This document shows, one piece after another, positions 10,905 through 22,688 of a DNA stretch of 32,713 nucleotides. This DNA is from a virus (Duplodnaviria > Caudoviricetes), in the IMG/VR virus record IMGVR_UViG_3300030372_003259, positions 1 to 32,713 of that record; one strand, given 5' to 3'. The position numbers and the translations under genes were made by a program. How positions within the stretch are numbered: position 1 is the stretch's first letter; each line of letters opens with the position of its first letter. The notes beneath the pieces were generated by a model, which saw only the letters and a program-made list of their open reading frames with translations, was not told where the DNA came from and made no database searches.

Positions 10905-10929
10905 TAATTAACTATCTTTCATTAGATGT

Positions 10930-10957
10930 TTGTATAGTGAGAATTATATGCTATAGT
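10930..10957 (+). promoter_or_regulatory. Extended -10 promoter facing right, upstream of the putative ncRNA
   Basis: TTGTAT (10930-10935), 16-nt spacer ending in TGc, TATAGT (10952-10957). Confidence 0.5.
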
Positions 10958-10971
10958 CAACTTAATTACAA
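10943..10971 (-). promoter_or_regulatory. Sigma70/HrdB-type promoter for the terminase-portal operon
   Basis: Minus strand TTGTAA (10971-10966), 17-nt spacer, TATAAT (10948-10943). Confidence 0.65.
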
Positions 10972-10984
10972 ACACTAAACACAA

Positions 10985-11168
10985 GTAATTTGTTACAGGT
11001 GAAGATGGCATCGGGAGTCGAAAAGCTGCTCACTGGCAAGACAGTACACTAGAAAGACAAAGGCAGTACCCAAGGACACAAGAAAAGGTTTAGTCAGCAT
11101 ACTGACATAATATGCCCGCTAATGCTCAAAAAGGCTGTGTTTACTGACAATACGGTCTACAGAATTAC
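10985..11168 (+). ncRNA. Putative structured ncRNA (~185 nt), family unknown
   Basis: GC-enriched island with no long ORF. Closing stem GTAATT/AATTAC; GGCAT-CGGG with CCCG-cta-ATGCT; GCTGCT/GGCAGT; hairpins ACTG/CAGT and GTCAG/CTGAC. Confidence 0.5.
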
Positions 11169-11218
11169 CAACATATTTTTTACGTATAATAAAGTGACAG
11201 TCTAGATTAAAACCTGTT

Positions 11219-11321
11219 AGTCAAACATCTTGTATATGAATTTCTGTATATCCGACTACTTAGATACTTTAAATTTATAGACAATATAGATATACAGAAA
11301 TACATATTTATATGGTTGACT
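11219..11321. repeat. Long imperfect inverted repeat (~33-nt arms, 36-nt loop)
   Basis: 11234-11252 pairs with 11289-11307 at 18/19 positions; 11219-11228 pairs with 11312-11321 at 9/10. Confidence 0.85.
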
Positions 11322-11490
11322 TACATACCCTAGTTAATTAAATATACCCCTATATAGTTTAAATTGATACCTATATGAACTTAAGTAATATATATATTTA
11401 GATGTTAATATTTTCTTCGTCTTCCTTTGGGAATCCGAACTAAATCTATAGTTTTGATTTCTTTTAGTTATATATAGTGAAAGGATAGTA

Positions 11491-11757
11491 ATGGCTATAT
11501 TAAATAAAAAGTCTACAGAAGAAACTGTAGATAAAGTTGAAGTAACCGAAGAAGTAGTTGAAGAAACTAAGTCTAGTACCTATGAATGTAAAGGTTGTAA
11601 TAAAACTTTTAAGAAAGGTAATAACTTTAGATGGATTCGACCTAAGGCCAAATTTGATAATGGTACTTATGTAGATAATATATTTATAGTTTGGAACTGG
11701 TGTAAACCTTGCGGTGAATCTAAAGCTAAAGAAGCATTCGGTTATATTAACAACTAA
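11491..11757 (+). CDS. Small putative zinc-finger protein (CKGC...CKPC)
   Basis: GAAAGGA RBS; two CxxC motifs; first gene of the rightward arm. Confidence 0.8.
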   Translation: MAILNKKSTEETVDKVEVTEEVVEETKSSTYECKGCNKTFKKGNNFRWIRPKAKFDNGTYVDNIFIVWNWCKPCGESKAKEAFGYINN

Positions 11758-11767
11758 ATATCCAATT

Positions 11768-11821
11768 TACTTGGTTAACTAGGGTAATTAATTTTATCTT
11801 AGTTAGCCAGGTATTTTTTTT
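11768..11821 (+). terminator. Long-stem intrinsic terminator
   Basis: ~20-bp stem with G-U pairs (11768-11787 / 11794-11813) followed by T8. Confidence 0.8.
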
Positions 11822-11842
11822 AGTCGCTTTATCTGTAGTCTA

Positions 11843-11857
11843 AATGTCAAACGATAG
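11843..11857 (+). repeat. Intergenic motif AATGTCAAACGATAG, copy 1
   Basis: Identical 15-mer at 18074-18088; 12-mer at 13318-13329. Confidence 0.8.
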
Positions 11858-11910
11858 TATTTTTTTCTTCCGCCTGCATTCGCATTCGTAATAAAAAAAA
11901 AGGATTTTAT

Positions 11911-12057
11911 ATGAAAATAAATTGGTTTGAGTATTGGATATGGATACCTATATATGTAGCTATTAAGAATAGAGGTAATTTGTATAGTATATATAGCGAA
12001 TTATTTGTGATTAATGGCATAAGATTAGGTAAATATAAACATTTAATTGAAAGGTAA
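11911..12057 (+). CDS. Small hypothetical protein, 48 aa (MKINWFEYWIWIPIYV...), not in ORF track
   Basis: AAAGGA RBS 6 nt upstream; stop 2 nt before the next ATG. Confidence 0.7.
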   Translation: MKINWFEYWIWIPIYVAIKNRGNLYSIYSELFVINGIRLGKYKHLIER

Positions 12058-12059
12058 AT

Positions 12060-12311
12060 ATGAGTAAAACAATTATCTGCGGACACTGCGGTAATGATGT
12101 TGAACCAAATAATAGGTATTGGCATAGACAAAAAGCTAAATGGTATCCGCTATATATACATAACCATTGCGGTGTTAAGTTACACGAAATAGGTGAAAGT
12201 AACCAAATCTGGAACGTACATCGCAGAGGTAAACTAAATACAAAAGCTATAGAAGATAAGTTAGCTAAAGAAGCAACAACTAAAGCCGAACAGCTTAAGT
12301 TATCTCTATAA
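12060..12311 (+). CDS. Small putative zinc-binding protein (CGHC...HNHC)
   Basis: GAAAGG RBS; Cys/His motif pair. Confidence 0.8.
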   Translation: MSKTIICGHCGNDVEPNNRYWHRQKAKWYPLYIHNHCGVKLHEIGESNQIWNVHRRGKLNTKAIEDKLAKEATTKAEQLKLSL

Positions 12312-12314
12312 ACT

Positions 12315-12355
12315 AGTTGACTAGGTAGTTTCCCTTATCTACCTAGTTAGCTTTT
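12315..12355 (+). terminator. 14-bp hairpin with C/U-rich loop and short T tail (weak terminator or processing site)
   Basis: AGTTGACTAGGTAG / CTACCTAGTTAGCT, loop TTTCCCTTAT. Confidence 0.6.
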
Positions 12356-12368
12356 AAAGTCACTAACT

Positions 12369-12686
12369 ATGAAAGGAATAATAAACGTGAGTGAATTAAA
12401 ATCATTAAGATACGCAATACATCATACTGGTATTCCAGTTAATAATCCAGAAGATTATGACCCAGCTAAATATTATAATCGTTCTGGTTGTGCATACGTA
12501 GATACATTATGCAGTTGTAGTCTAGGTAAAGGAATTACTTATTACTTTGACTGGTATAACGATACCGATGATTCTGTATATCGTGAACATATAGAAGAAG
12601 AAATTAAAGCTAGATTTAATAATAAGTTTCGATTCTGCGATAGTTGTGAATCGGAAATAATGGATAAGATAAAAGAACAATACTAA
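12369..12686 (+). CDS. Hypothetical Cys-containing protein (start may be GTG at 12387 after the GAAAGGA RBS)
   Basis: ORF track; CSC and CDSC motifs. Confidence 0.75.
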   Translation: MKGIINVSELKSLRYAIHHTGIPVNNPEDYDPAKYYNRSGCAYVDTLCSCSLGKGITYYFDWYNDTDDSVYREHIEEEIKARFNNKFRFCDSCESEIMDKIKEQY

Positions 12687-12743
12687 TGTATTTTTTTTCT
12701 ATCTTGCCTTCGCAATCTATAAAAAAAAAGGAGTGTTTTATTT

Positions 12744-12923
12744 ATGAAAGTAAATGAAGAACTAAAAAATGCAATTAATCTTGTAGTTAATTTTGTTGAA
12801 GAAGTTAACGAAGATAATGCAAATACTGTAAAAGAAATTGTAGCTACTAGTGTAAAAGCACATAGCTTAAACAAATATGAAGCTAGATTAAAAGACGATT
12901 TAGATTATCTAGAAGTTGGATAA
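12744..12923 (+). CDS. Small hypothetical protein, 59 aa (MKVNEELKNAINLVV...), not in ORF track
   Basis: AAGGAG RBS; fills the gap on the coding strand. Confidence 0.8.
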   Translation: MKVNEELKNAINLVVNFVEEVNEDNANTVKEIVATSVKAHSLNKYEARLKDDLDYLEVG

Positions 12924-12940
12924 TCGGAAAGGATATTATT

Positions 12941-13231
12941 ATGGAAAATGATAATACTACTTCTGTTGACTCTACAGAAACAAAACAATATGAGTTACCT
13001 ATCTGCGGTATTACAGGTAAACCCTTAGAATGGGGACAACGTACTTGGATATCAACATATGTAAAAGGTAAAAAGGAAGTTATTCCTTTGTATTTGGATA
13101 TTGAAGCAGTTCGTGCTTTACATAGACAAAGTCCTACTTATATAGCTAAAAAAGGTAATCAAGATACCCAACAGGTAGATAATAATCAAGTAAATATGGA
13201 TGATTTAGTTGATGAAGAAGTTAGCATATAG
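12941..13231 (+). CDS. Hypothetical protein (96 aa, acidic C-terminal tail)
   Basis: GGAAAGGA RBS; ORF track. Confidence 0.8.
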   Translation: MENDNTTSVDSTETKQYELPICGITGKPLEWGQRTWISTYVKGKKEVIPLYLDIEAVRALHRQSPTYIAKKGNQDTQQVDNNQVNMDDLVDEEVSI

Positions 13232-13246
13232 CCTTCTCTGTTAATT

Positions 13247-13294
13247 GTAGATACTGCGTAGTTAGTAATAGCTACGTAGTTATCTATTTTTTTT
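13247..13294 (+). terminator. Long-stem intrinsic terminator with GTAA loop
   Basis: GTAGATA-CTGCGTAGTTA / TAGCTACGTAG-T-TATCTAT followed by T8. Confidence 0.8.
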
Positions 13295-13299
13295 ATTAA

Positions 13300-13329
13300 G
13301 TCACGGATTTTTACAAAAATGTCAAACGA
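13300..13329 (+). promoter_or_regulatory. Bipartite motif GTCACGGATTT-N13-AAACGA
   Basis: Same two boxes with the same spacing at 14591-14620. Confidence 0.65.
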
Positions 13330-13338
13330 AAGGCAACT

Positions 13339-13554
13339 ATGCAAAACCTAATAGAAAAAATACATAGTTTATCTGTACGTAGTTTAATTACAGTATTACT
13401 ATGGATTATAAATGACTTGAACAATGCAGCTAATTCATCTAATTATGCAAACTTAGACGAAAAAGTTAAGGGATGGTGTGCAATGTTACTTGAAGCTGTT
13501 GAATATCAAGTCGATAAGGAAATTAAAAGAAATAATACTATAGAGGAGGAATAA
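13339..13554 (+). CDS. Hypothetical protein (71 aa)
   Basis: GAAAGG RBS; TAATG-coupled to the next gene. Confidence 0.8.
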   Translation: MQNLIEKIHSLSVRSLITVLLWIINDLNNAANSSNYANLDEKVKGWCAMLLEAVEYQVDKEIKRNNTIEEE

Positions 13555-13841
13555 TGGACGAAATGTTAGATATGATGAAGAAAACATCTGCAATGCTAGC
13601 AAATCTAGATAATAGAATAAAGTTATTAGCAGATATTACTAGTGTAATGACAGAATATCTAGGTGAACGTGATAGTGAATTTAGAAATATGTTTATTATG
13701 GGAACATTACATAATGATGATTTACGTAATCAATTTACAGAATTTCTTAATCAAAATCACAAAGATATAGAACACGGTGATGACCTTATTACAACAATGA
13801 TGGAAATCAACGAACAATTTGCTAATAAAGAGGAGGAATAA
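13554..13841 (+). CDS. Hypothetical protein (95 aa)
   Basis: GGAGG RBS; TAATG coupling on both sides. Confidence 0.8.
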   Translation: MDEMLDMMKKTSAMLANLDNRIKLLADITSVMTEYLGERDSEFRNMFIMGTLHNDDLRNQFTEFLNQNHKDIEHGDDLITTMMEINEQFANKEEE

Positions 13842-14464
13842 TGCCTAATTGGACAGCTAATTACTTAGAAATTACTGGTAAACCAGAAGATGTTGATAGA
13901 TTTATTAATGATGTAACAGTATTAGAAGCAGAACCAAATGATGTTTCTATTAGTTATGATTTAACTAAAATAAATCCACTACCAGATATATTTGATTCAA
14001 TGCACACTGGTGCAAGAAATATAGATGGTGTTAAATATACACAATGGTTTGAAGATAGTGAAGGTGTTAGACCATTACTTGAAATTAATGCATTAGAAAT
14101 TACAGATAAATATGGTACTTGTGACCCAGTTGACTGGCAATATCGTAACTGGGGGACTAAATGGGGTGATTGCGATACAGTAATTGTATCTAAAAACACT
14201 ACAAATGATAGTATCAAAGAACTTGAAATGCGTTTTGATTCTGCTTGGGGTGAACCTTTTATGTTATTAAATGATATATCACGAAAGTATAATTTAAGTA
14301 TTACAAATACTTGGGATATAGAATTAGGTAACGGTGATGGTGTAACTAAATATCCTTGGACGGATGAACATACGCAAGAAACATATGAACATTTTGTTGA
14401 ACAACACGAAGAAATGAAACTAAGTGTCAAAAAGATGTTTATGGATAGAGATTCAACTGCATAA
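13841..14464 (+). CDS. YubB ferredoxin-like / DUF1281-family protein
   Basis: Family-typical motifs MPNW..N.L.I.G, W...NWGTKW and F.SAW. Confidence 0.8.
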   Translation: MPNWTANYLEITGKPEDVDRFINDVTVLEAEPNDVSISYDLTKINPLPDIFDSMHTGARNIDGVKYTQWFEDSEGVRPLLEINALEITDKYGTCDPVDWQYRNWGTKWGDCDTVIVSKNTTNDSIKELEMRFDSAWGEPFMLLNDISRKYNLSITNTWDIELGNGDGVTKYPWTDEHTQETYEHFVEQHEEMKLSVKKMFMDRDSTA

Positions 14465-14542
14465 GCAATTGAAACGCAAAATAAGATGAAGGACCTAGTT
14501 AGTACGGTACTAATTCCCTGTTGTATACGGATGGCTAGGTTC

Positions 14543-14589
14543 TTCTCTTGTGTTCTACTCTCACAGACCACAAGAGAAAGTTTTTTTTT
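14543..14589 (+). terminator. Intrinsic terminator
   Basis: TTCTCTTGTG / CACAAGAGAA stem followed by T9. Confidence 0.75.
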
Positions 14590-14590
14590 G

Positions 14591-14620
14591 GTCACGGATT
14601 TATGTAAAAATAATAAACGA
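14591..14620 (+). promoter_or_regulatory. Bipartite motif GTCACGGATTT-N13-AAACGA, second copy
   Basis: Matches 13300-13329; lies between a terminator and an RBS. Confidence 0.65.
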
Positions 14621-14635
14621 TAAAGGAAGGTAATA

Positions 14636-15118
14636 ATGAAAATAGAAATAGGTGATTGGCATAATATATATTCACAAGAACCAGACAATAAGCTATACAT
14701 ATGCCAAGTAGCTTATATTCCACAAGACTCACACAAAGATAAAAAAAGTTGGGGTAATGATGGTACTGTATTTAAAATTAGAGTACACGCACCTACAATA
14801 GAAACTGCTTTAGCACAAGCTATGCGTATTGTGAATATAGAACGTGCTATTGATATGTGTATGATACCAGATGAACATCCAGATTATATAGGTAAAGAAT
14901 CATTAACACATGATGATATCAAAGCAATTGTTGATGACACTAGAGAAAGAGGTGTATATCAAGCTTGGATGTTAATAGAACCTACTTCGATACAAATTCA
15001 TTTAGAAGATGACGAAGAAGCTTTGATGGGTATGACTGCAAATAATATAGAACAAATTATTGAACGTACTAGTGATGAAGCAGAAGAATATTTAAAGGAA
15101 ATAACAGATGATGAATAG
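14636..15118 (+). CDS. Hypothetical protein (160 aa)
   Basis: AAAGGAAGG RBS; ORF track. Confidence 0.8.
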   Translation: MKIEIGDWHNIYSQEPDNKLYICQVAYIPQDSHKDKKSWGNDGTVFKIRVHAPTIETALAQAMRIVNIERAIDMCMIPDEHPDYIGKESLTHDDIKAIVDDTRERGVYQAWMLIEPTSIQIHLEDDEEALMGMTANNIEQIIERTSDEAEEYLKEITDDE

Positions 15119-15419
15119 CACAGACATTGTTCAACAAGAACCACCAAGAGTTAATAACTCTAATAAAGGTCGTAAACCAGTATTGTTGAATGACAACGTA
15201 GTTAAAGTTTTACTAGCAAATCCTAATGTATGGTTTCGCATTGGCGTAACAGACAACTGGATAAGCGGAGTAAAAAAGAATATAGAAAGTATGCAACAAA
15301 ATAATATAAAACATCTTATAGATGTTGGCAGATTTTCTATTGTACAAAGAAAGAATGATGATACTAATAAAATTGATATTTATTGTCAATTTGTTACATC
15401 ATCACAAGAAGAAGAATAG
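15108..15419 (+). CDS. Hypothetical protein (103 aa), possibly DNA-binding
   Basis: AAAGGA RBS; overlaps the upstream gene end. Confidence 0.75.
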   Translation: MMNSTDIVQQEPPRVNNSNKGRKPVLLNDNVVKVLLANPNVWFRIGVTDNWISGVKKNIESMQQNNIKHLIDVGRFSIVQRKNDDTNKIDIYCQFVTSSQEEE

Positions 15420-15434
15420 TAAGGAAGGAATACT

Positions 15435-16154
15435 ATGGAAAAACAATTAGACTGTTGGAAGCTAGCCAACGCTGTATTAGGTAAGTCACGTAGAATTTTA
15501 TTATACGGACCACCAGGTACAGGTAAAACATATAGTGCAGTTAAAACAAATGCACCACTAGATATGGACGGAAAACCAAATGTATACCAAGTAACAATGA
15601 CAGAAGATACAGCTTCTGCAAACTTGGAAGGCTTTTATATGCCTAGTGCAGATGGTTCATTTAAATGGAATGACGGTATTGCTATACAATCTTGGCGTAA
15701 TGGCGGTAGATTAGTTATTAACGAAATCGACCACGCTTCACCAGATGCAATGACATTCCTACACGCTATATTGGATGACCAAGATATTGCAATGTTGACG
15801 TTAAACAATGATAATAAGGAAACTGTTAGACCAGCAGAAGGCTTTCAAGTTATTGCTACAACTAATAGTCCGCCAGAATCATTGCCACTTGCATTAAAGG
15901 ATAGATTTCCTGTAAAAATTAATATCGATAAAATACATCCAAAAGCAATGGACAAATTCCCAGCAGAATGGCATACAACAATCCAGGACACTACATTGAT
16001 AGATGACCCGGAAGAACGTATATCTGTTCGTGCTTGGAACGAATTCTTTGAATTACAAAACAAAGGCTTTTCTATAGATGTAGCAGGTAAGCTAATATTT
16101 GCAGACAAAGCAACAGATTTGTTGGACGCTATACACTTAAGCCAGGTCGATTAA
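15435..16154 (+). CDS. MoxR-type AAA+ ATPase (CbbQ/NirQ/NorQ, CobS-like)
   Basis: Walker A GPPGTGKT, variant Walker B LVINEID, sensor ATTN, arginine finger ALKDRF. Confidence 0.92.
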   Translation: MEKQLDCWKLANAVLGKSRRILLYGPPGTGKTYSAVKTNAPLDMDGKPNVYQVTMTEDTASANLEGFYMPSADGSFKWNDGIAIQSWRNGGRLVINEIDHASPDAMTFLHAILDDQDIAMLTLNNDNKETVRPAEGFQVIATTNSPPESLPLALKDRFPVKINIDKIHPKAMDKFPAEWHTTIQDTTLIDDPEERISVRAWNEFFELQNKGFSIDVAGKLIFADKATDLLDAIHLSQVD

Positions 16155-17575
16155 TGCACGGTAATAAAAGATATCCATATCCACAGATAGTTACTGGGGA
16201 TGACTGGACTGTTTACAATACTACATCATTAGATGAAACACCTAAGACAGACAATTTAAATAAACAAATGTATGTTCCTATGGATGCAGAATGTAATAGA
16301 TGCGGTATTGACCACAGTAGAATGATTCGTAGACACGAATTAGGTCACGCAAAATGGTCACCAGCTACCATTGGTAAACTTAAAGGCATACGTAAGGATG
16401 CTATTGAAGCAATGGAAGAAGTACGTATTAACTATTTATTAGGTAAATACAAACTTCCAGTTGATGAACCAGTTATGTGTTTGGATGACATAAAAATACG
16501 CTATATGGATTTGATTTATAATCAAAGTATTGCAGATTTAATGCTGTATACAATTGCTAGTTATTCACATAATCGTGATTACGAATTAAATAAAAACTCA
16601 ACTTTTGAGGCTTTATTAGAATTGTTAAATACAGCACAAGAATATGATGATTTATCACCTATGCGTAAAGCAGAACTTGCTTTTACTCACAATGTTGTAA
16701 GGGATTTAACAGGTGAAATACGCTATTCACGTTCTGGTAGCAATCCAAGTTATCGTAAGGTACAAAAACTAGCTAAACGCTTGACAGATATACTAAATAT
16801 GTTTCAAGACAAACCAGAACCATATCAACCGGAAGCAGATAGTAATTCTATCGGAGGTGAAACCGAAGAAGGTGAAGGTGATGGTAGTGATGAAGCAGAA
16901 CAAATTGCTTATGGCGTTTCCGATTTAGAAAAACGTATGCGTAAAGAATTAATGCAAGAAATGCAATATCGTACAACATCTGGTATAGGTTACTGGGGTT
17001 CAATGGAAATATTGCAACCAGCATTAACAGTAAACTTACAAGGTAGACTCAAAGCTAGTAGAGGATACCAAGCTAAAGATTATGGCTACAATCCTAAATA
17101 CATTAATAGGTTTTGTGTTGACAGAAAAATATTCAAACAAAAGTTGAATGTTAAAGGCGGTACAATACTTATAGACGCATCTGGTTCAATGATGTTTAAT
17201 GGCCAAGATATATTGGAAATTATGGAATTATTGCCAGCTGTAACTATTGCTATGTATAACGGTCACTATAATAAAGGTCACTTACGTGTAATTGCACGTA
17301 ATGGCAAACGTGTATCGGAACAATATTTAAATACACATTCTGGAGGAGGTAACGTTGTTGACGGTCCAGCATTAGAATGGTTGGCTACTATGCCAGCTAG
17401 ACGTATTTGGGTATCCGATATGAAAGTAGTAGGTTCATATCAATCTAGAAATGCAACAGGTTTTAACCTGCTTAAGGAATGCTACGATTTATGTACTAAA
17501 CATCGCATTATTAATTTAAAAGATGTTGAAGAAGTAAAGGAACACGCACTTAAATTAAATAGTGTGTTAAAGTAG
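16154..17575 (+). CDS. HExxH metallopeptidase-like plus vWA domain protein (MoxR partner, CobT-like)
   Basis: RHELGH near the N-terminus, acidic linker, MIDAS motif IDASGSM; coupled to the AAA+ gene. Confidence 0.85.
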   Translation: MHGNKRYPYPQIVTGDDWTVYNTTSLDETPKTDNLNKQMYVPMDAECNRCGIDHSRMIRRHELGHAKWSPATIGKLKGIRKDAIEAMEEVRINYLLGKYKLPVDEPVMCLDDIKIRYMDLIYNQSIADLMLYTIASYSHNRDYELNKNSTFEALLELLNTAQEYDDLSPMRKAELAFTHNVVRDLTGEIRYSRSGSNPSYRKVQKLAKRLTDILNMFQDKPEPYQPEADSNSIGGETEEGEGDGSDEAEQIAYGVSDLEKRMRKELMQEMQYRTTSGIGYWGSMEILQPALTVNLQGRLKASRGYQAKDYGYNPKYINRFCVDRKIFKQKLNVKGGTILIDASGSMMFNGQDILEIMELLPAVTIAMYNGHYNKGHLRVIARNGKRVSEQYLNTHSGGGNVVDGPALEWLATMPARRIWVSDMKVVGSYQSRNATGFNLLKECYDLCTKHRIINLKDVEEVKEHALKLNSVLK

Positions 17576-17725
17576 TAGGGAATATAGTAACACGCAAGTG
17601 TACCTATGTTTCCTTTCCATAGGTTAAGCTGTATTTAGTAGCAGAATAGAGTGCAGGGAGAACCTGCAACGGGTTACCTTCATTAACAGTCAACAGACCT
17701 ATAGTGAACACTGCTACGACTACTT
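17570..17725 (+). ncRNA. Putative structured RNA domain A (multibranch; GNRA hairpin; anti-SD-like loop)
   Basis: Nested helices AAGTAGT/ACTACTT, AATATAGT/GCTGTATT, ACAC-GCAA-GTGT, ACCTATG/CATAGGT, GTAGCAG/CTGCTAC, TGCAGG/CCTGCA, TTCATTA/TAGTGAA. G-U pairs favour the + strand. Confidence 0.7.
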
Positions 17726-17733
17726 AGACGAAA

Positions 17734-17821
17734 CTAATGGCATAGCCAGGACGAAGGCTAAGCAACGAAGCACCATCGCTGGTGCTAGGAAGCGTGCGTG
17801 AGGGATGGCAGATGCCATTAG
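17734..17821 (+). ncRNA. Putative structured RNA domain B
   Basis: Perfect 10-bp closing stem CTAATGGCAT/ATGCCATTAG enclosing AGCC/GGCT and AGCACCA/TGGTGCT hairpins; GC-rich against an AT-rich genome. Confidence 0.65.
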
Positions 17822-17846
17822 CTAGAGTTAACAAAAAGGATATAAT
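17818..17846 (+). promoter_or_regulatory. Putative promoter for RNA domain C
   Basis: TTAGCT, 17-nt spacer, TATAAT (17841-17846); no ORF follows. Confidence 0.5.
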
Positions 17847-17861
17847 GTAAATTAATTAAGA

Positions 17862-18053
17862 AATAATTATACTGTTACATCGTATAGAGTAATAGTTTAG
17901 TACTAGTACGCAGGCAAACCCATATACTGTAAAGCAGTTGAACTTCCCTGTACGCGGTAAAACTAACTGCCTAACTATATGAGTTAGATGTTGGACTAAA
18001 CAAGTTTTATGTAACTAAAACATAACTTTGTAACAGATTAATTATTTTTTTTT
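17862..18053 (+). ncRNA. Putative pseudoknotted ncRNA domain C, raiA-motif-like core
   Basis: Closing stems AATAATTA/TAATTATT and CTGTTACA/TGTAACAG, inner GTTTAGT/ACTAAAC, CTAACT/AGTTAG, GTTTTA/TAAAAC, crossing pair GTATA/TATAC, core CGCAGGCAAA...GCGG...CTGCC; ends in T9. Confidence 0.7.
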
Positions 18054-18073
18054 GGTTAAACAAAATACCTAAG

Positions 18074-18088
18074 AATGTCAAACGATAG
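18074..18088 (+). repeat. Intergenic motif AATGTCAAACGATAG, further copy
   Basis: Identical to 11843-11857. Confidence 0.8.
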
Positions 18089-18106
18089 ATAATTTTTTTT
18101 AGATAC

Positions 18107-18135
18107 TTGCATTGATGACAATATCAAACTAGAGT
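18107..18135 (+). promoter_or_regulatory. Promoter yielding a leaderless mRNA
   Basis: TTGCAT-17-TAGAGT, then 7 nt to ATG at 18143; no RBS. Confidence 0.6.
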
Positions 18136-18142
18136 GAATACT

Positions 18143-18379
18143 ATGAATATAGATGAATTGCTGCTTGAAGCAGAACAAGGAAAACGTAGTCCAATATTAG
18201 CAAGAATAACAAAAGAAGCATTGCCTTTTTGGGAAGGATGTGAAGCTAAAGTACTTAATGGAACATCAATAAAACCATACGTAGTTATGCGTTTACTAAA
18301 GGAACATTTTAATGTGAAGATTAGTGAATCTGCTATACGTAATCACTTTGAAAATTTGGCTGCATCTAATGGCAAATAA
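18143..18379 (+). CDS. Small HTH-like hypothetical protein (start revised from 18134)
   Basis: VKISESAIRNH recognition-helix-like segment; leaderless promoter geometry. Confidence 0.75.
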   Translation: MNIDELLLEAEQGKRSPILARITKEALPFWEGCEAKVLNGTSIKPYVVMRLLKEHFNVKISESAIRNHFENLAASNGK

Positions 18380-19430
18380 AAAAAATATAGAAAAGCTTTT
18401 ACTAGAAGCTGAATCACAAGAAATACGTGATTTAAAAGCAGACAACCTTCGTTTATTAAAACAACTAGAAAAAGCTAAACGTAAAAAAGAAGATTTAATT
18501 GACGCTATATATCAAGCAGTATCTACTAATCTACGTACTTGGAATAAACCTAAAATACCTAAACCTCGCATTCATAAAAGAACAAAAGACGCAGAAGTTG
18601 CGGTAGCTGTTTTATCAGATATACAACTAGCTAAAGTTACACCAGATTACAATACATTAGTAGCGGAAGAACGTGTAATAGAATACGCGAACAAAATTGT
18701 TGAATTAACAAACGTACAACGTTCTGCACATCCAGTTAATAAATGCGTTGTATTAGCTGCAGGTGATATTGTTGAAGGTGAGCTTATATTCCCGGGTCAA
18801 ACACATCTTATAGATGCTTCGTTATATAACCAAGTTACAATAGATGGACCAAGAATATTGACAAAGTTTTTTGACATATTACTTGCTAATTTTAATGAAG
18901 TAGAAGTACATTGGGTGATAGGTAACCACGGCAGCCTTGGCGGTAGAGCAAGGAAAGACTACCATCCAGACTCTAATGCAGACAGAATGCTTGGAAAGAT
19001 TATGTCAATGGTATATGAGAAAGAAAACAGAATATCATGGACAATACCAGACAGTACAGGTGACAACCACTGGTTCGACATCGCAGATGTAGGTGAAGGA
19101 TGTAAATTCTTCGTATGGCATGGTGATAACGTAAGGGGACACAGCGGATTTCCTTGGTATGGTTTTGGTAAAAAGTTACTAGGGTGGAAAGCATTAGCGT
19201 CAAGAGGACTCATGCCCGATTTCGATTACGCTATTGCTGGCCACTTTCATACACCTACAACCATGTACGTTAATGACGTAAGGTTATGGGTTAATGGAAG
19301 CACAGAAAGTTACAACACTTACGCTTTAGAGCAGCTTGCAAGCATGGGAAGACCATGTCAATGGCTGTTATTTGCAAAGCCAGGAGCTGGAGTGACTGCT
19401 GAATACCTTGTAAATCTTAATAATGTATAG
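18369..19430 (+). CDS. Calcineurin-like metallophosphoesterase with N-terminal coiled coil (start revised to MANKK)
   Basis: Motifs SDIQ, GDIVEG, GNHG, HGD, GHFH. Confidence 0.9.
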   Translation: MANKKNIEKLLLEAESQEIRDLKADNLRLLKQLEKAKRKKEDLIDAIYQAVSTNLRTWNKPKIPKPRIHKRTKDAEVAVAVLSDIQLAKVTPDYNTLVAEERVIEYANKIVELTNVQRSAHPVNKCVVLAAGDIVEGELIFPGQTHLIDASLYNQVTIDGPRILTKFFDILLANFNEVEVHWVIGNHGSLGGRARKDYHPDSNADRMLGKIMSMVYEKENRISWTIPDSTGDNHWFDIADVGEGCKFFVWHGDNVRGHSGFPWYGFGKKLLGWKALASRGLMPDFDYAIAGHFHTPTTMYVNDVRLWVNGSTESYNTYALEQLASMGRPCQWLLFAKPGAGVTAEYLVNLNNV

Positions 19431-19437
19431 CTATAAT
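19408..19437 (+). promoter_or_regulatory. Promoter yielding a leaderless mRNA
   Basis: TTGTAA-18-TATAAT, then 7 nt to ATG at 19445; no RBS. Confidence 0.65.
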
Positions 19438-19444
19438 GTATAAT

Positions 19445-19615
19445 ATGAATGACTTAATTGTCAAGTCTAAATGGAAATTAAGTAGTATAGAGTACAGTGG
19501 TCTAGGTGACACACCATACTTTATATTAACTAATGACCAAGGTGAAACTAAGTTAGTACCTATTGAACGTGGTGTACATAACTTACGAAGCCTATTAGAC
19601 TTAGAAGAAGAATAA
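19445..19615 (+). CDS. Small hypothetical protein, 56 aa (MNDLIVKSKWKLSSIEY...), not in ORF track
   Basis: Open frame filling the gap; promoter directly upstream. Confidence 0.75.
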   Translation: MNDLIVKSKWKLSSIEYSGLGDTPYFILTNDQGETKLVPIERGVHNLRSLLDLEEE

Positions 19616-19670
19616 ATATTTTTTTCTATCTGTTCCTTTTGGACCAGATATAAAAAAAAGAAAGGATGTT

Positions 19671-20243
19671 ATGACTAATAACGTTGATTTACTATCCCCT
19701 TTTCCACAGGAGTTAGTAAGAAAAGCACCCGCAGGTAAGTTCGGTGATTATGTGCCACATGCACATTATGTAGAACGCCTAAGGGACAGTGGAATAAATT
19801 ACAAATGGGAATGCGAACCAGTGTATAGCACACACAATGGAGAACAACGTATTGTAGGTGCTAAAGGTACTATTACTTTAGACGGTATGGGTAGCTATAC
19901 AGGCTTTGGTGATGTAGATACATTTAAGTTAAACAACGACAAGTTTAATGATGGTAGCAACCTTAAAGACGCAGAGTCTGATGCATTTAAACGTGCATGT
20001 ATGAGGTTTGGCCTTGGCGTAGAGCTATGGTCAGGCAGTAAACAGTCAGAAGAAGAAGCTACTGCAGCTACTGAACCAGAAGATAAGGTTGAAGTAACTA
20101 AAATAGACATGCGTAAGAAAGAAAATAAGCCTACAGCAGAAGATATGAAACGTATGAATGACATTATGGATAGTATCGTAGGTGAAGGTACAGAAGATGA
20201 TACAGATATTAAACCATATCCTAAAGACGAAGCACCTTTCTAA
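19671..20243 (+). CDS. Rad52/Rad22-family (Sak-like) single-strand annealing protein
   Basis: Signature K.AESDAFKRAC..FGLG..L; acidic tail ending DEAPF. Confidence 0.85.
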   Translation: MTNNVDLLSPFPQELVRKAPAGKFGDYVPHAHYVERLRDSGINYKWECEPVYSTHNGEQRIVGAKGTITLDGMGSYTGFGDVDTFKLNNDKFNDGSNLKDAESDAFKRACMRFGLGVELWSGSKQSEEEATAATEPEDKVEVTKIDMRKKENKPTAEDMKRMNDIMDSIVGEGTEDDTDIKPYPKDEAPF

Positions 20244-20782
20244 TGCCTGACTTAGAGTTTATAGCCAGGACTATACACACAATGACTGAAGGTGTACAGA
20301 ATAAAGAAACATTACATAAGATTATGGGTACAGCTAATGAGTACGCTAAGACTATGAAGTTTCCTAAATCTAAGACTGAGTGGTCAGATGAACAGTTAGA
20401 CAAGTATTTTAACATGATTGAAAGACTTGTAGAACTACCTGTACAATACTCTCAAGCAGACTTTGATGAGTTAACATTAGAGGAAAGACTAGAAGCTGCT
20501 GGTTTAGCAGCGACAGACAAGACGGAGGGTCTACAACAACCCGGAGGTCTTGTCGGAGAGGTATTGAAAGATATGGAACAACAGAACAAGTATCGTGACG
20601 ATTTGAAATGTCCCTATTGTCAAGCAATGGTATATGATAATCGTAACAGCAAAAAGTCAGATAAAAGTCCAGACTTTACTTGCAGCACTAACGACCCTGT
20701 TGTATGTGGTGGTCATACAGGCAAATGGCGTAAGTCATGGTGGTTAGACAACACAGATATACCAGAGGAGTGGGGTATATAA
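20243..20782 (+). CDS. Hypothetical protein with C-terminal zinc finger
   Basis: CPYC...YDNR...K.PDFTC...C motif; coupled to the annealase gene. Confidence 0.8.
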   Translation: MPDLEFIARTIHTMTEGVQNKETLHKIMGTANEYAKTMKFPKSKTEWSDEQLDKYFNMIERLVELPVQYSQADFDELTLEERLEAAGLAATDKTEGLQQPGGLVGEVLKDMEQQNKYRDDLKCPYCQAMVYDNRNSKKSDKSPDFTCSTNDPVVCGGHTGKWRKSWWLDNTDIPEEWGI

Positions 20783-20880
20783 TGAATAGATTACAGCGTA
20801 GAGCTGCTAAATCTAAAAAGAAAACCAGATACAGAGGTTTAAGTAAACGACAAGTACTTACACCTGATAGCTGGAGATAA
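20782..20880 (+). CDS. Basic micro-protein, 32 aa (MNRLQRRAAKSKKKTRYRGLSKRQVLTPDSWR), not in ORF track
   Basis: TAATG overlap with the upstream stop; ends just before the next gene's AAGGAGG RBS. Confidence 0.7.
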   Translation: MNRLQRRAAKSKKKTRYRGLSKRQVLTPDSWR

Positions 20881-20889
20881 GGAGGTCTA

Positions 20890-21156
20890 ATGATACCTGA
20901 ATCATTTAGAGGTGAAGAAATACCAGCATATATTAAAAGTAAGACACAACTGGTAGCGTATGTTCTTACAAGATATATGGGAGAAAGTCCTATAAGTAAC
21001 TGGGAATTTGTAGCAGAATTATATTGTCATAGATTTGGTGGTATTATACACAATCTAAGACAAGAAGGTTACAAGATAACTACTTTACCTTCAAAGAAGC
21101 GTGGTTTAGTACATTACTATTGTACTGAATTACCTACGAAAGCTACCATTAGCTAA
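20890..21156 (+). CDS. Winged helix-turn-helix protein
   Basis: RFGGIIHNLRQEGYKITT pattern typical of phage wHTH proteins; AAGGAGG RBS. Confidence 0.75.
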   Translation: MIPESFRGEEIPAYIKSKTQLVAYVLTRYMGESPISNWEFVAELYCHRFGGIIHNLRQEGYKITTLPSKKRGLVHYYCTELPTKATIS

Positions 21157-21608
21157 TGATAGAACTAGTAGTTGGTTGTTTGTTTCCGCTTTCACTAACA
21201 ACTAACAACTTACCTGAATACCGTGACTGTCAAGTGGTGGAATATAACATTAATCATGTTATAGACTATACAGACATGGTATCCAGGTACTTTAAAGAGG
21301 AAGACATCTTGCAATCGCTTAACATCATCTATTGTGAAAGCAGCGGCAAAGTAAATGCCGTAGGTAACAATAAAGATGGTACGCAAGATGTTGGACTCTG
21401 GCAATTTAATGATGATACTTGGGCTTGGTTAAAACCTAAATTAAGTATAATAAGTCCAAGGACTAATCCAGAAGTATCTACAGCAGTTGCTTCATGGTTA
21501 GTATACAATGACGGTTGGCATCATTGGAATAGTAGTAAACACTGTTGGAAAGGAATAGATAATGAATTGTTGTGGTATAAAGTTATCCCAAGTATGCGTG
21601 GTAACTGA
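21156..21608 (+). CDS. SLT-family lytic transglycosylase
   Basis: Catalytic CESSG, GLWQF and GWHHW motifs; hydrophobic N-terminus. Confidence 0.88.
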   Translation: MIELVVGCLFPLSLTTNNLPEYRDCQVVEYNINHVIDYTDMVSRYFKEEDILQSLNIIYCESSGKVNAVGNNKDGTQDVGLWQFNDDTWAWLKPKLSIISPRTNPEVSTAVASWLVYNDGWHHWNSSKHCWKGIDNELLWYKVIPSMRGN

Positions 21609-21669
21609 CCAAGTATATTGTGATTACTGTGAAAAAGTATGGGGTCACGTAGATGAGTTTTTAGAATGA
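21562..21669 (+). CDS. Cys-rich micro-protein, 35 aa (MNCCGIKLSQVCVVTDQVYCDYCEK...), not in ORF track
   Basis: GGAAAGGA RBS; ATGA overlap with the next ORF; overlaps the SLT 3' end by 47 nt. Confidence 0.7.
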   Translation: MNCCGIKLSQVCVVTDQVYCDYCEKVWGHVDEFLE

Positions 21670-21845
21670 ACATAGACGATAATTTATATAGTTACAAAGT
21701 AAACAAAAAGTTTATGGAACAAGTAGACAGTATGTACAATTATCAATGTGAAGATTGTAATGATGTATATATGACAAACGTACCGTGGGATGTTAAGTGT
21801 CCCCATTGTATGGACAATTATTATAAAGGACAAGATGATTTATGA
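21666..21845 (+). CDS. Zinc-ribbon protein, 59 aa (YNYQCEDC...CPHC, FmdB-like), not in ORF track
   Basis: ATGA overlaps on both sides; two CxxC motifs. Confidence 0.75.
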   Translation: MNIDDNLYSYKVNKKFMEQVDSMYNYQCEDCNDVYMTNVPWDVKCPHCMDNYYKGQDDL

Positions 21846-22093
21846 GCAAAGATAATAAAATAGATTTAGATAAGATTAATATATTTACACATCATAAGTA
21901 TTTAAAAACATGGGCTGCAATGTTTAGTAAAGCATGTGGCAGTGATACTTTTGATGTAAAGCCAGATATGAATAAACTTAGATTCCTTATGGATAAGTTT
22001 GTAATGGATTATAACTGGCATTTAGAACAACTAGATAAGGACATGCAACATGACGCGCATGTAAAAGACTATCGTAAAATGGAAGAAGAATGA
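21842..22093 (+). CDS. Hypothetical protein (83 aa)
   Basis: ORF track; ATGA overlaps. Confidence 0.8.
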   Translation: MSKDNKIDLDKINIFTHHKYLKTWAAMFSKACGSDTFDVKPDMNKLRFLMDKFVMDYNWHLEQLDKDMQHDAHVKDYRKMEEE

Positions 22094-22284
22094 GTAACAT
22101 TAAATATGTTAAACAACTTTTAGATAAAGAAGAAGAAATTTGTATGCATACAAGTGGTATTAATGACTTAAGAAAAATTATTGCATTTCTTAAAACAAAA
22201 GATAATACAATCTTTTCTACAAATTGTGAATGTGGATTAGTAGCAAGAAAACATAAATCGTATGTTAAAGATTGGGCAACTTAA
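22090..22284 (+). CDS. Hypothetical protein (64 aa)
   Basis: ORF track; ATGA overlap. Confidence 0.7.
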   Translation: MSNIKYVKQLLDKEEEICMHTSGINDLRKIIAFLKTKDNTIFSTNCECGLVARKHKSYVKDWAT

Positions 22285-22294
22285 AGGAGGAATA

Positions 22295-22417
22295 ATGACA
22301 GCTAAAGAGCATCCAATGTACAACACATATTTATATTGGAAAAAAAATAAAGAAACTATTAAACAACGTATAGAAAATACTTTTGATTTAAAACATAAGC
22401 TATATAGAGATGTCTGA
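22295..22417 (+). CDS. Small hypothetical protein, 40 aa (MTAKEHPMYNTYLYW...), not in ORF track
   Basis: AAAGGAGG RBS; overlaps the HNH start. Confidence 0.75.
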   Translation: MTAKEHPMYNTYLYWKKNKETIKQRIENTFDLKHKLYRDV

Positions 22418-22688
22418 TATATCGCTTATACGTGAAAAAGCCATGGAACGTGCTAATTACAGCTGCGAATGGGCATACTGTACAGACAGTAGATGGTTAG
22501 AGTTAGCACATATCCAGGCAATTGGGATGGGTGGTAGTCCCAAAAGAAAGTTTGACATTAACAATGTAGCAATACTATGTAAACATCACCATGATATTTA
22601 TGATGGTAGACAAAGAGTGGGTAATAGTGTAGCGTACAGAGAACTGTTAATGGGTTTTTTAAAAAGAGAAACGTCTACAAAAGAATAG
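22410..22688 (+). CDS. HNH endonuclease
   Basis: CEWAYC...ELAHI...MGG...N...LCKHHH pattern. Confidence 0.85.
   Translation: MSDISLIREKAMERANYSCEWAYCTDSRWLELAHIQAIGMGGSPKRKFDINNVAILCKHHHDIYDGRQRVGNSVAYRELLMGFLKRETSTKE

Follow-up and report, generated by a model that had tools for sequence, protein, structure and literature searches.

A conserved phage-encoded RNA with an invariant anti-Shine-Dalgarno seed may repress GAAAGG-led mRNAs in trans

The window analyzed here spans the entire record (32,713 nt) of an uncultured marine phage. Its rightward arm (11491-22688) carries small genes together with a MoxR-type ATPase, a vWA-like gene, a phosphoesterase and an annealing protein, and the terminase gene lies on the opposite strand. 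We refer to these as the early and late arms, labels that were assigned by strand and gene content and of which timing is no part. A long divergent intergenic region (10905-11490), GC-richer in its first part (10995-11170), runs from the terminase gene to the early arm. The phrog_33218 gene, which we read as vWA-like, is followed by the structured element described here (Table 1). The RNA begins directly 3' of the stop codon of this gene in every homologue examined, and the neighbouring genes are syntenic across all regions examined.

Among cultured phages, actinophages give the best matches, with low identities for both the phosphoesterase (42% and 34%) and the terminase (25-27%); we consider the host of the window phage likely to be actinobacterial. 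No WhiB gene was found in the window or in five other records. A single GTDB contig bearing the element (L223) sits in a gammaproteobacterial MAG, possibly by mis-binning, and the 16S tail obtained from one fetched genome was non-actinobacterial. The conserved core of the element, which we call A1, was absent from the two cultured actinophages whose phosphoesterases matched best. The family is plentiful in marine viromes, where one scan returned 222 relatives of the neighbouring gene.

Table 1. Positions of the element, its parts and related sites in the window.
Feature	Position	Strand	Description
Upstream gene (read as vWA-like)	16154..17575	+	473 aa, phrog_33218; DASGSM; preceded by MoxR-type AAA gene
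Candidate extended -10 promoter, TGT-TAAAGT	17565..17573	+	predicted start 17580-17581, first base of P1
P0 5' strand, AAGUAGU	17570..17576	+	pairs with 17719-17725; read-through RNA only
AGGG leader	17577..17580	+	alternative fold (17577-17587 with 17604-17614) pairs it with the loop
Domain A1	17581..17635	+	three-way junction, ~57 nt; from homologue alignment and folding
A1 stem P1	17581-17588/17628-17635	+	outer stem
A1 arm P2	17590-17601	+	GNRA hairpin, GCAA tetraloop
A1 arm P3 (flagged hairpin)	17602..17624	+	invariant seed CCUUUC at 17612-17617
A1 joiner UAA	17625-17627	+	
Domain A2	17638..17717	+	three-way junction P1-AAUAGAGU-P2 with GAGAR loop-RAC-P3-UKAACA-P1'
P0 3' strand, ACUACUU	17719..17725	+	behind A2
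Domain B	17727..17829	+	long variable hairpin, z -4.67; missing from shortest homologues
Start-stop element, AAAGGA-N4-AUG-UAA	17835..17850	+	in 16/67 regions, all long versions; head of domain C
Domain C	17858..18053	+	multi-hairpin, closed by 22-nt stem, then U-run
Promoter-like site of leaderless-looking gene 18143	18107..18145	+	TTGCAT-17-TAGAGT-7-ATG
Predicted target, GAAAGG site of gene 11491	11479..11484	+	others: 12049, 12927, 13328, 19660, 21548

The initial annotation had flagged a perfect 7-bp hairpin behind the vWA-like gene, and its letters are as described, with ACCTATG (17602-17608) and CATAGGT (17618-17624) enclosing the loop TTTCCTTTC (17609-17617). This hairpin is real, but it is only one arm, P3, of the conserved unit A1. 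The 475 nt from 17576 folded far better than shuffled sequences (z -4.9). The single-sequence minimum fold of this stretch has the loop paired with the AGGG upstream of it, which is why we turned to homologues to settle the structure. Judging from its GNRA loop and many G-U pairs, A1 is an RNA of the + strand, and the records searched hold one copy per genome. At the gathering score no Rfam family matched A1 in the window, a search of 17400-18300 at E<=10 returned chance hits only, and ARAGORN called nothing. Neither the element region nor a distant A1 gave a blastn match in 50,697 deposited phage records.

Perfect 7-bp hairpins occur in the window at chance level (34, compared to 22-38 in 12 shuffles), as does CCTTTC (13 occurrences, 11.2 expected), and none of the 12 shuffles gave a 7-bp hairpin with CCTTTC or GAAAGG in its loop. 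The early strand also carries a 14-bp hairpin at 12315-12352, with the loop UUUCCCUUAU and a folding energy of -18.7 kcal/mol. What places the flagged hairpin above chance is its conservation, that is, an invariant loop on covarying stems.

Protein searches gave 23 IMG/VR loci and then 80 of 222, and the regions from the vWA-like gene to gene 18143 were cut out by synteny alone, leaving 67 distinct regions (the window included) once five incomplete loci had been dropped. We found CCTTTC within the first 90 nt of all 67 regions, and again in 18 of 18 distinct regions of a second search begun from a distant member (28 of 29 loci usable, some regions repeating the first set). In an alignment of 53 distinct A1 sequences, which was fitted to the model and hence leans to it, 95.9% of cells paired and 18 of 20 pairs changed on both sides; slid controls brought pairing down to 27-47%. 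An ungapped alignment of 16 close homologues, made with no model fitting, gave 96.6% pairing, and 10 of the 20 pairs changed on both sides. CCUUUC was invariant in all 53 distinct aligned homologues. Along with the 6-nt seed, the G-C pair that closes the P3 loop is invariant (52/52), and the length of the loop and its 5' bases vary between homologues. The initial annotation had set loop conservation against stem covariation; the loop proved invariant and the stems covary. The feature that marks anti-SD loops as a class, an invariant unpaired seed on covarying stems, is present in the A1 family, with the unpaired state predicted.

We compared the seed with the 3' tail of 16S rRNA. In the accessible text of PMC6107228, the B. 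subtilis 16S rRNA ends in the 15-nt tail GAUCACCUCCUUUCU, of which CCUUUC makes up positions 9-14 and UCCUUUC positions 8-14. The commonest 13-base tail listed there is GATCACCTCCTTT (14,088 of 20,495), and similar tails appear in the available part of PMC6288834. The ending CCUCCUUUCU, which had been ascribed to actinobacterial 16S rRNA, is not Actinobacteria-specific according to these portions of the two papers. Among 36 distinct P3 variants, the base preceding CCUUUC is U in 33 and C in two (giving UCCC), and a C at -2, which extends the match toward the CCUCC core, is found in six. Two homologues extend to ACCUCCUUUC, and loop bases kept beyond the seed often lengthen the 16S match. We conclude that, at the level of sequence, what the seed conserves corresponds to the distal end of the tail, complementary to GAAAGG(A), and not to the CCUCC core. 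The earlier description of the loop as a 16S-tail mimic is therefore apt for the distal CCUUUC, kept in 53 of 53 homologues, but not for the core (C at -2 in 6/36).

The loop could be a decoy, a copy of the free 16S 3' end that soaks up a host protein binding or cutting the tail, such as a defence RNase that cleaves the anti-SD, or else a 30S factor like Era, RbfA or bS21. The match to tail positions 8-14 in 33 of the 36 P3 variants, the two homologues that reach ACCUCCUUUC and our impression that the P2 hairpin of domain A2 looks like helix 45 are all consistent with this. Toxins that cut the 16S tail also exist: in the accessible parts of PMC12274833 and PMC12620021, mycobacterial toxins cut it 11 nt from its end, and MazF-mt3 does so at U/CCUU. 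However, the loop of the window phage lacks the MazF-mt11 site CACCU, the CCUCC core is mostly gone, A2 is mostly found without such a loop, and the strand bias of GAAAGG sites described below would not be expected from a decoy. We regard this explanation as unlikely.

We next consider the ribosome-binding sites. GAAAGGA does precede genes 11491, 12941, 19671 and 21562, as the initial annotation had stated. The 10-nt match before 21562 is likewise real, but two of its 10 nt pair with the 3' arm of the stem and the ORF is only 35 aa long. We counted sites among the ORFs of related genomes using one rule for both strands. In 11 genomes, GAAAGG/AAAGGA sites preceded 57 of 238 early-strand ORFs compared to 17 of 346 on the late strand, and control GGAGG/AGGAG sites showed no difference (47/238 and 84/346). 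With four distant genomes added, the counts were 78 of 321 on the early strand, which is that of the RNA, and 22 of 474 on the structural-gene strand, with AGGAG/GGAGG sites again even (77/321 and 113/474); all 15 genomes are relatives, so that p-values from these counts overstate independence. The claim that early genes use GAAAGG-type sites is thus borne out as an enrichment on the early strand. The share of these sites was higher on that strand in 14 of the 15 genomes, the exception having a truncated early arm. Among starts with a 5-nt tail match, the ratio of distal-only to proximal-only matches was 68:35 on the early strand and 58:96 on the late strand.

In the window, the loop is predicted to bind 13 of 26 early but 2 of 22 late starts, chosen by us, at -6 kcal/mol or better. 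The seed, a short and AU-rich sequence, gives duplexes of about -6 to -9 kcal/mol with accessibility ignored. In a second phage family, GAAAGG-type sites preceded 10/54 early and 4/54 late starts in genomes with the loop (p 0.15), compared to 11/88 and 6/59 in those without it (p 0.79); with module borders set by us, the difference lies in the expected direction and is not significant. The early-strand bias may be generic. We also examined co-evolution of the loop with SD sequences and rejected it: the pooled signal, although significant (AAAGGAG 30/66 in CUCC-loop genomes vs 12/68), reflects one deep split, independent pairs gave p 1, and UCCC and AUCC loops do not track their own SDs. As a separate observation, early-gene GAAAGG sites in relatives (L311, also G009, at 1249 and 3481; L298, also G005, at 4456) and in the window (19623-19665) have (A)UCCUU-type loop hairpins 6-7 nt ahead of them, and these hairpins could fold onto the SD in cis. 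The word ATGTCAAACGA, possibly an operator, is repeated at 11835-11870 and 13290-13335 (before early genes) and at 18066-18100 (before the 18143 promoter).

The two genes that the initial annotation had called leaderless, 18143 and 19445, do have that appearance, the latter with TTGTAA-18-TATAAT-7-ATG. For gene 18143 the pattern holds family-wide, with a -10/N7/ATG arrangement in 63 of 67 regions. The idea that leaderless genes are spared needs widening, since the class that would be spared is mainly the structural-gene arm, with its AGGAG-type, weak or coupled starts, and goes beyond these two genes.

The seed might instead be recognised by an RNA-binding protein of the phage or its host, such as the one encoded by the adjacent gene 18143, with the likeness to 16S rRNA incidental. 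A protein site would fit the strict 6-nt invariance together with the closing G-C pair, the absence of fine tracking of SD variants and the synteny of the neighbouring genes. However, the length and 5' bases of the loop vary, the extra bases that are kept often lengthen the 16S match, and the SD bias is left unexplained. On balance, we judge a protein site unrelated to SD sequences to be very unlikely.

The fold and 5' end of the RNA determine whether the loop is open. The alternative fold between leader and loop is the predicted minimum for 17573-17640 (-18.9 kcal/mol). This pairing is significant in 24 of 41 homologues, the window phage among them, and beats non-cognate leaders in 32 of 41; the L003/L071/L093 and L027/L028/L032 clades lack it, and their loop is equally invariant. 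The proposal that the loop pairs in cis with AGGG at 17577-17580 accordingly stands as a prediction for the read-through RNA of this phage, but as several clades lack a leader partner, cis pairing cannot explain the invariance of the loop. Only 21 of the 67 regions contain GAAAGG, leaving no conserved cis partner, and with a leaderless-looking gene next in line in 63 of 67 regions, the loop has no SD downstream that it could sequester in cis.

The candidate extended -10 promoter overlaps the end of the vWA-like gene (Table 1). We found TANNNT 4-8 nt before P1 in 52 of 60 distinct homologues, as eight hexamer variants in three registers relative to the stop codon, and TGn accompanied that hexamer in 33 of the 52, compared to 16 of 325 in the background. 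A shifted-window control, which is a weak one, reached at least 0.49 in 2 of 20 shifts, with 0.87 observed. A distant clade has TTCGCA-16-TATAAT, in which a -35 is added. A further stem, P0, would close read-through RNA around A1 and A2: its cognate duplex beats non-cognate ones in 43 of 54 homologues (p<0.05 vs shuffles in 28/54), and it covaries and precedes a U-run in short versions. The promoter motif and P0 imply different 5' ends, and two RNA forms may both exist; an RNA started at P1 from its own promoter would lack the leader. The loop is predicted to be open in 50 of 54 homologues in RNA from P1, in 42 of 54 when closed by P0 and in 29 of 54 in nascent RNA, and the corresponding probabilities in the window phage are 0.98, 0.52 and 0.45.

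These folds bear on a cis switch, in which the loop would pair with the leader behind the upstream stop codon or with the SD of the start-stop element, so that termination or processing would switch with the translation state of the upstream gene. The energy of the alternative fold, its significance across homologues and the covarying P0 with its U-run in short versions all point in that direction. Set against them are the invariance of the loop both in clades without a leader match and in A1-only clades, whose fold is dominated by a long P1, the occurrence of the start-stop element in only 16 of 67 regions, the leaderless promoter of the next gene and the lack of a leader in RNA from the candidate promoter. 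We consider a cis switch quite unlikely.

Downstream of A1, the partner is exchangeable: it is A2 in most homologues, the tRNA-like domain (TLD) of tmRNA in one clade and a bare pyrimidine run in another, and the CCUUUC loop is kept with all three neighbour types (A2, TLD or none). A2 is an autonomous motif, widespread in unrelated phages (L223-L285, L104-L222), and mostly occurs without any CCUUUC-type loop. A strict pattern recovered 44 distinct stretches from 63 loci, at least one of which (L252) looks like chance, and 15 of the 17 predicted pairs of A2 covary; seven GTDB contigs also carry the pattern. A2 lies between co-directional genes, for example upstream of T7-like RNA polymerase genes, adjoins tRNA-like sequences in two loci (L224, L281) and occurs as tandem copies in two others (L221, L227). 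No Rfam family matched A2, and neither the window nor 20 other loci gave an Rfam hit to a catalogued class of small self-cleaving ribozymes. One A2 searched by blastn against the 50,697 deposited phage records gave short coding hits in Listeria phages, which we counted as chance. Our impression is that A2 resembles helix 45 (in its P2 hairpin), RNase P or the L1 stalk, and it may bind tRNA or process the transcript.

In the second phage family, ACUCCUUUC is embedded in P3 of A2 (L120, L145, L214, L316-L331, L335-L349), often with a GNRA-type hairpin next to it and a gene of the same phosphoesterase family (phrog_284) downstream. Among 15 distinct upstream regions of this family, the seed was present in 6 of 6 with A2 and in 0 of 9 without it. 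As the seed here sits inside A2, it survives a change of scaffold.

The TLD replaces A2 behind A1 in the L102, L103 and L364-L368 clade (six distinct regions) and is absent from the window, where A2 takes its place. The stretch L102:3630-3705 matches both ends of the Rfam tmRNA model RF00023 at 40.7 bits (E 4e-13), below the gathering score of 47, and ARAGORN made no call on it. As in tmRNA, this tRNA-like domain has the G3-U70 pair and a T-arm; it differs from tmRNA in having no mRNA-like domain or tag frame, about 284 model positions being replaced by 6 nt. Beyond A2 in the window, the start-stop element could act as a ribosome-loading stabiliser or as a sponge for the loop, and the U-run behind domain C is likely the 3' end.

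From these comparisons, we conclude that A1 is a phage-encoded, conserved three-way-junction RNA with P3 as its predicted seed arm. We propose that it acts in trans as an antisense RNA, pairing with GAAAGG-type sites to repress early and probably host mRNAs and sparing structural and leaderless genes, a role to which we give slightly better than even credence. The RNA would arise at the early operon's end, with its own extended -10 promoter as a probable second source, and would be stable and accumulate. Its loop would nucleate a 6-9-bp duplex on the SD and compete with the 30S subunit. The leader of read-through RNA may at first hide the loop, whose later release by folding or processing would introduce a lag, and the outcome would be a translational early-to-late timer. 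An extended form of this proposal, which we hold as possible but doubtful, is a timer that splits the SD code: the seed would cover the distal GAAAGG half and shut off early and host mRNAs, late genes would have been selected for the AGGAG half or for no SD, and the RNA would be self-masked in the read-through transcript and serve as a plug-in module fused to ribosome-directed RNAs (a tag-less TLD, or A2).

Pairing with GAAAGG sites might also stabilise or recruit mRNAs instead of repressing them, for instance by holding an mRNA near A2 or a tRNA-like partner. The RNA shares an operon with its predicted targets, its partner is ribosome-related in at least one clade (the TLD; Rfam tmRNA, E 4e-13), and B11 may also stabilise some targets, according to the accessible part of PMC10470900. 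However, a duplex on the SD itself should block 30S binding, and A1 stands alone in one large clade. We consider such a positive role highly improbable.

For lytic phages that encode neither an RNA polymerase nor a known host-shutoff protein, the means of lowering early translation is largely an open question. If repression in trans by A1 is true, a 57-nt, chaperone-free RNA able to distinguish the two halves of the SD would achieve this without a protein, and would also offer a small scaffold for repressing selected RBSs in Gram-positive hosts. With the family come a second uncatalogued RNA motif, A2, and a tag-less tmRNA fragment.

RsaE/RoxS, RNAIII, other UCCC-motif sRNAs and the 'cuckoo' CCUCCUCCC RNAs show an anti-SD seed in a loop. 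The seeds of all these RNAs match the GGAG/GGGA core, whereas that of A1 matches the distal GAAAGG end; the unpaired UCCC of UCCC-motif sRNAs is mostly missing here (2/36 P3 variants), and there is no Rfam match. The 16S tail itself differs from the A1 loop in that its CCUCC core and GAUCA are not conserved in the loop, and in being a free 3' end where the loop is closed. Phage antisense RNAs such as C4 of P1 and P7 and CI of P4 use short single-stranded seeds to target transcripts of the phage itself. Like them, A1 is a phage-encoded structured RNA with a short seed, and action on its own transcripts is what we propose; unlike them, it has a seed that is a generic SD complement, where C4 and CI have one or two dedicated leader targets and a role in immunity, and it has no Rfam match.

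The closest parallel in Actinobacteria is 6C/B11, whose loops repress through RBS pairing of at least 6 nt with no chaperone, as described in the accessible portions of PMC6486639 and PMC10470900. As set out there, 6C/B11 are small structured RNAs with unpaired pyrimidine-rich loops acting on the RBSs of many mRNAs free of Hfq; A1 is alike, with the pairing predicted, and the host phylum is likely shared with the window phage. In contrast to the chromosomal 6C/B11 with their two C-run loops, A1 is phage-encoded and has one CCUUUC loop and a GNRA arm on a three-way junction, and the 6C/B11 Rfam model matched neither the window at the gathering score nor 17400-18300 at E<=10. A1 is thus a real RNA family that matches no Rfam entry, probably working like 6C/B11 and UCCC-motif sRNAs and a member of neither. 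In the literature searched, including the accessible part of the review PMC12197685, we found no described phage anti-SD RNA. The searchable supplements of a catalogue of viral structured RNAs (PMC10690425) held no match, and A1 or A2 may still be among its candidates; PMC7771536 and PMC9004378, in their accessible parts, served as general background.

Nine RNA runs contain part of the window. These runs were picked with the window stretch itself, four of them (X1-X4) come from one study, their contigs give no strand, ends or level, and two (X5 and X7) were left out because they contain largely relatives or pieces one read long. The X1 contig identical to 17539-17644 had a depth of 60.9, compared to 4-20 for the other listed pieces of the phage. 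The contig covering 17603-17833 in X2 had a depth of 20.2 (others 2-10), and that covering 17617-17804 in X3 a depth of 12.5 (others 3.7-7.6). In each of these three runs the deepest contig falls on the element, which gives a weak hint of its expression.
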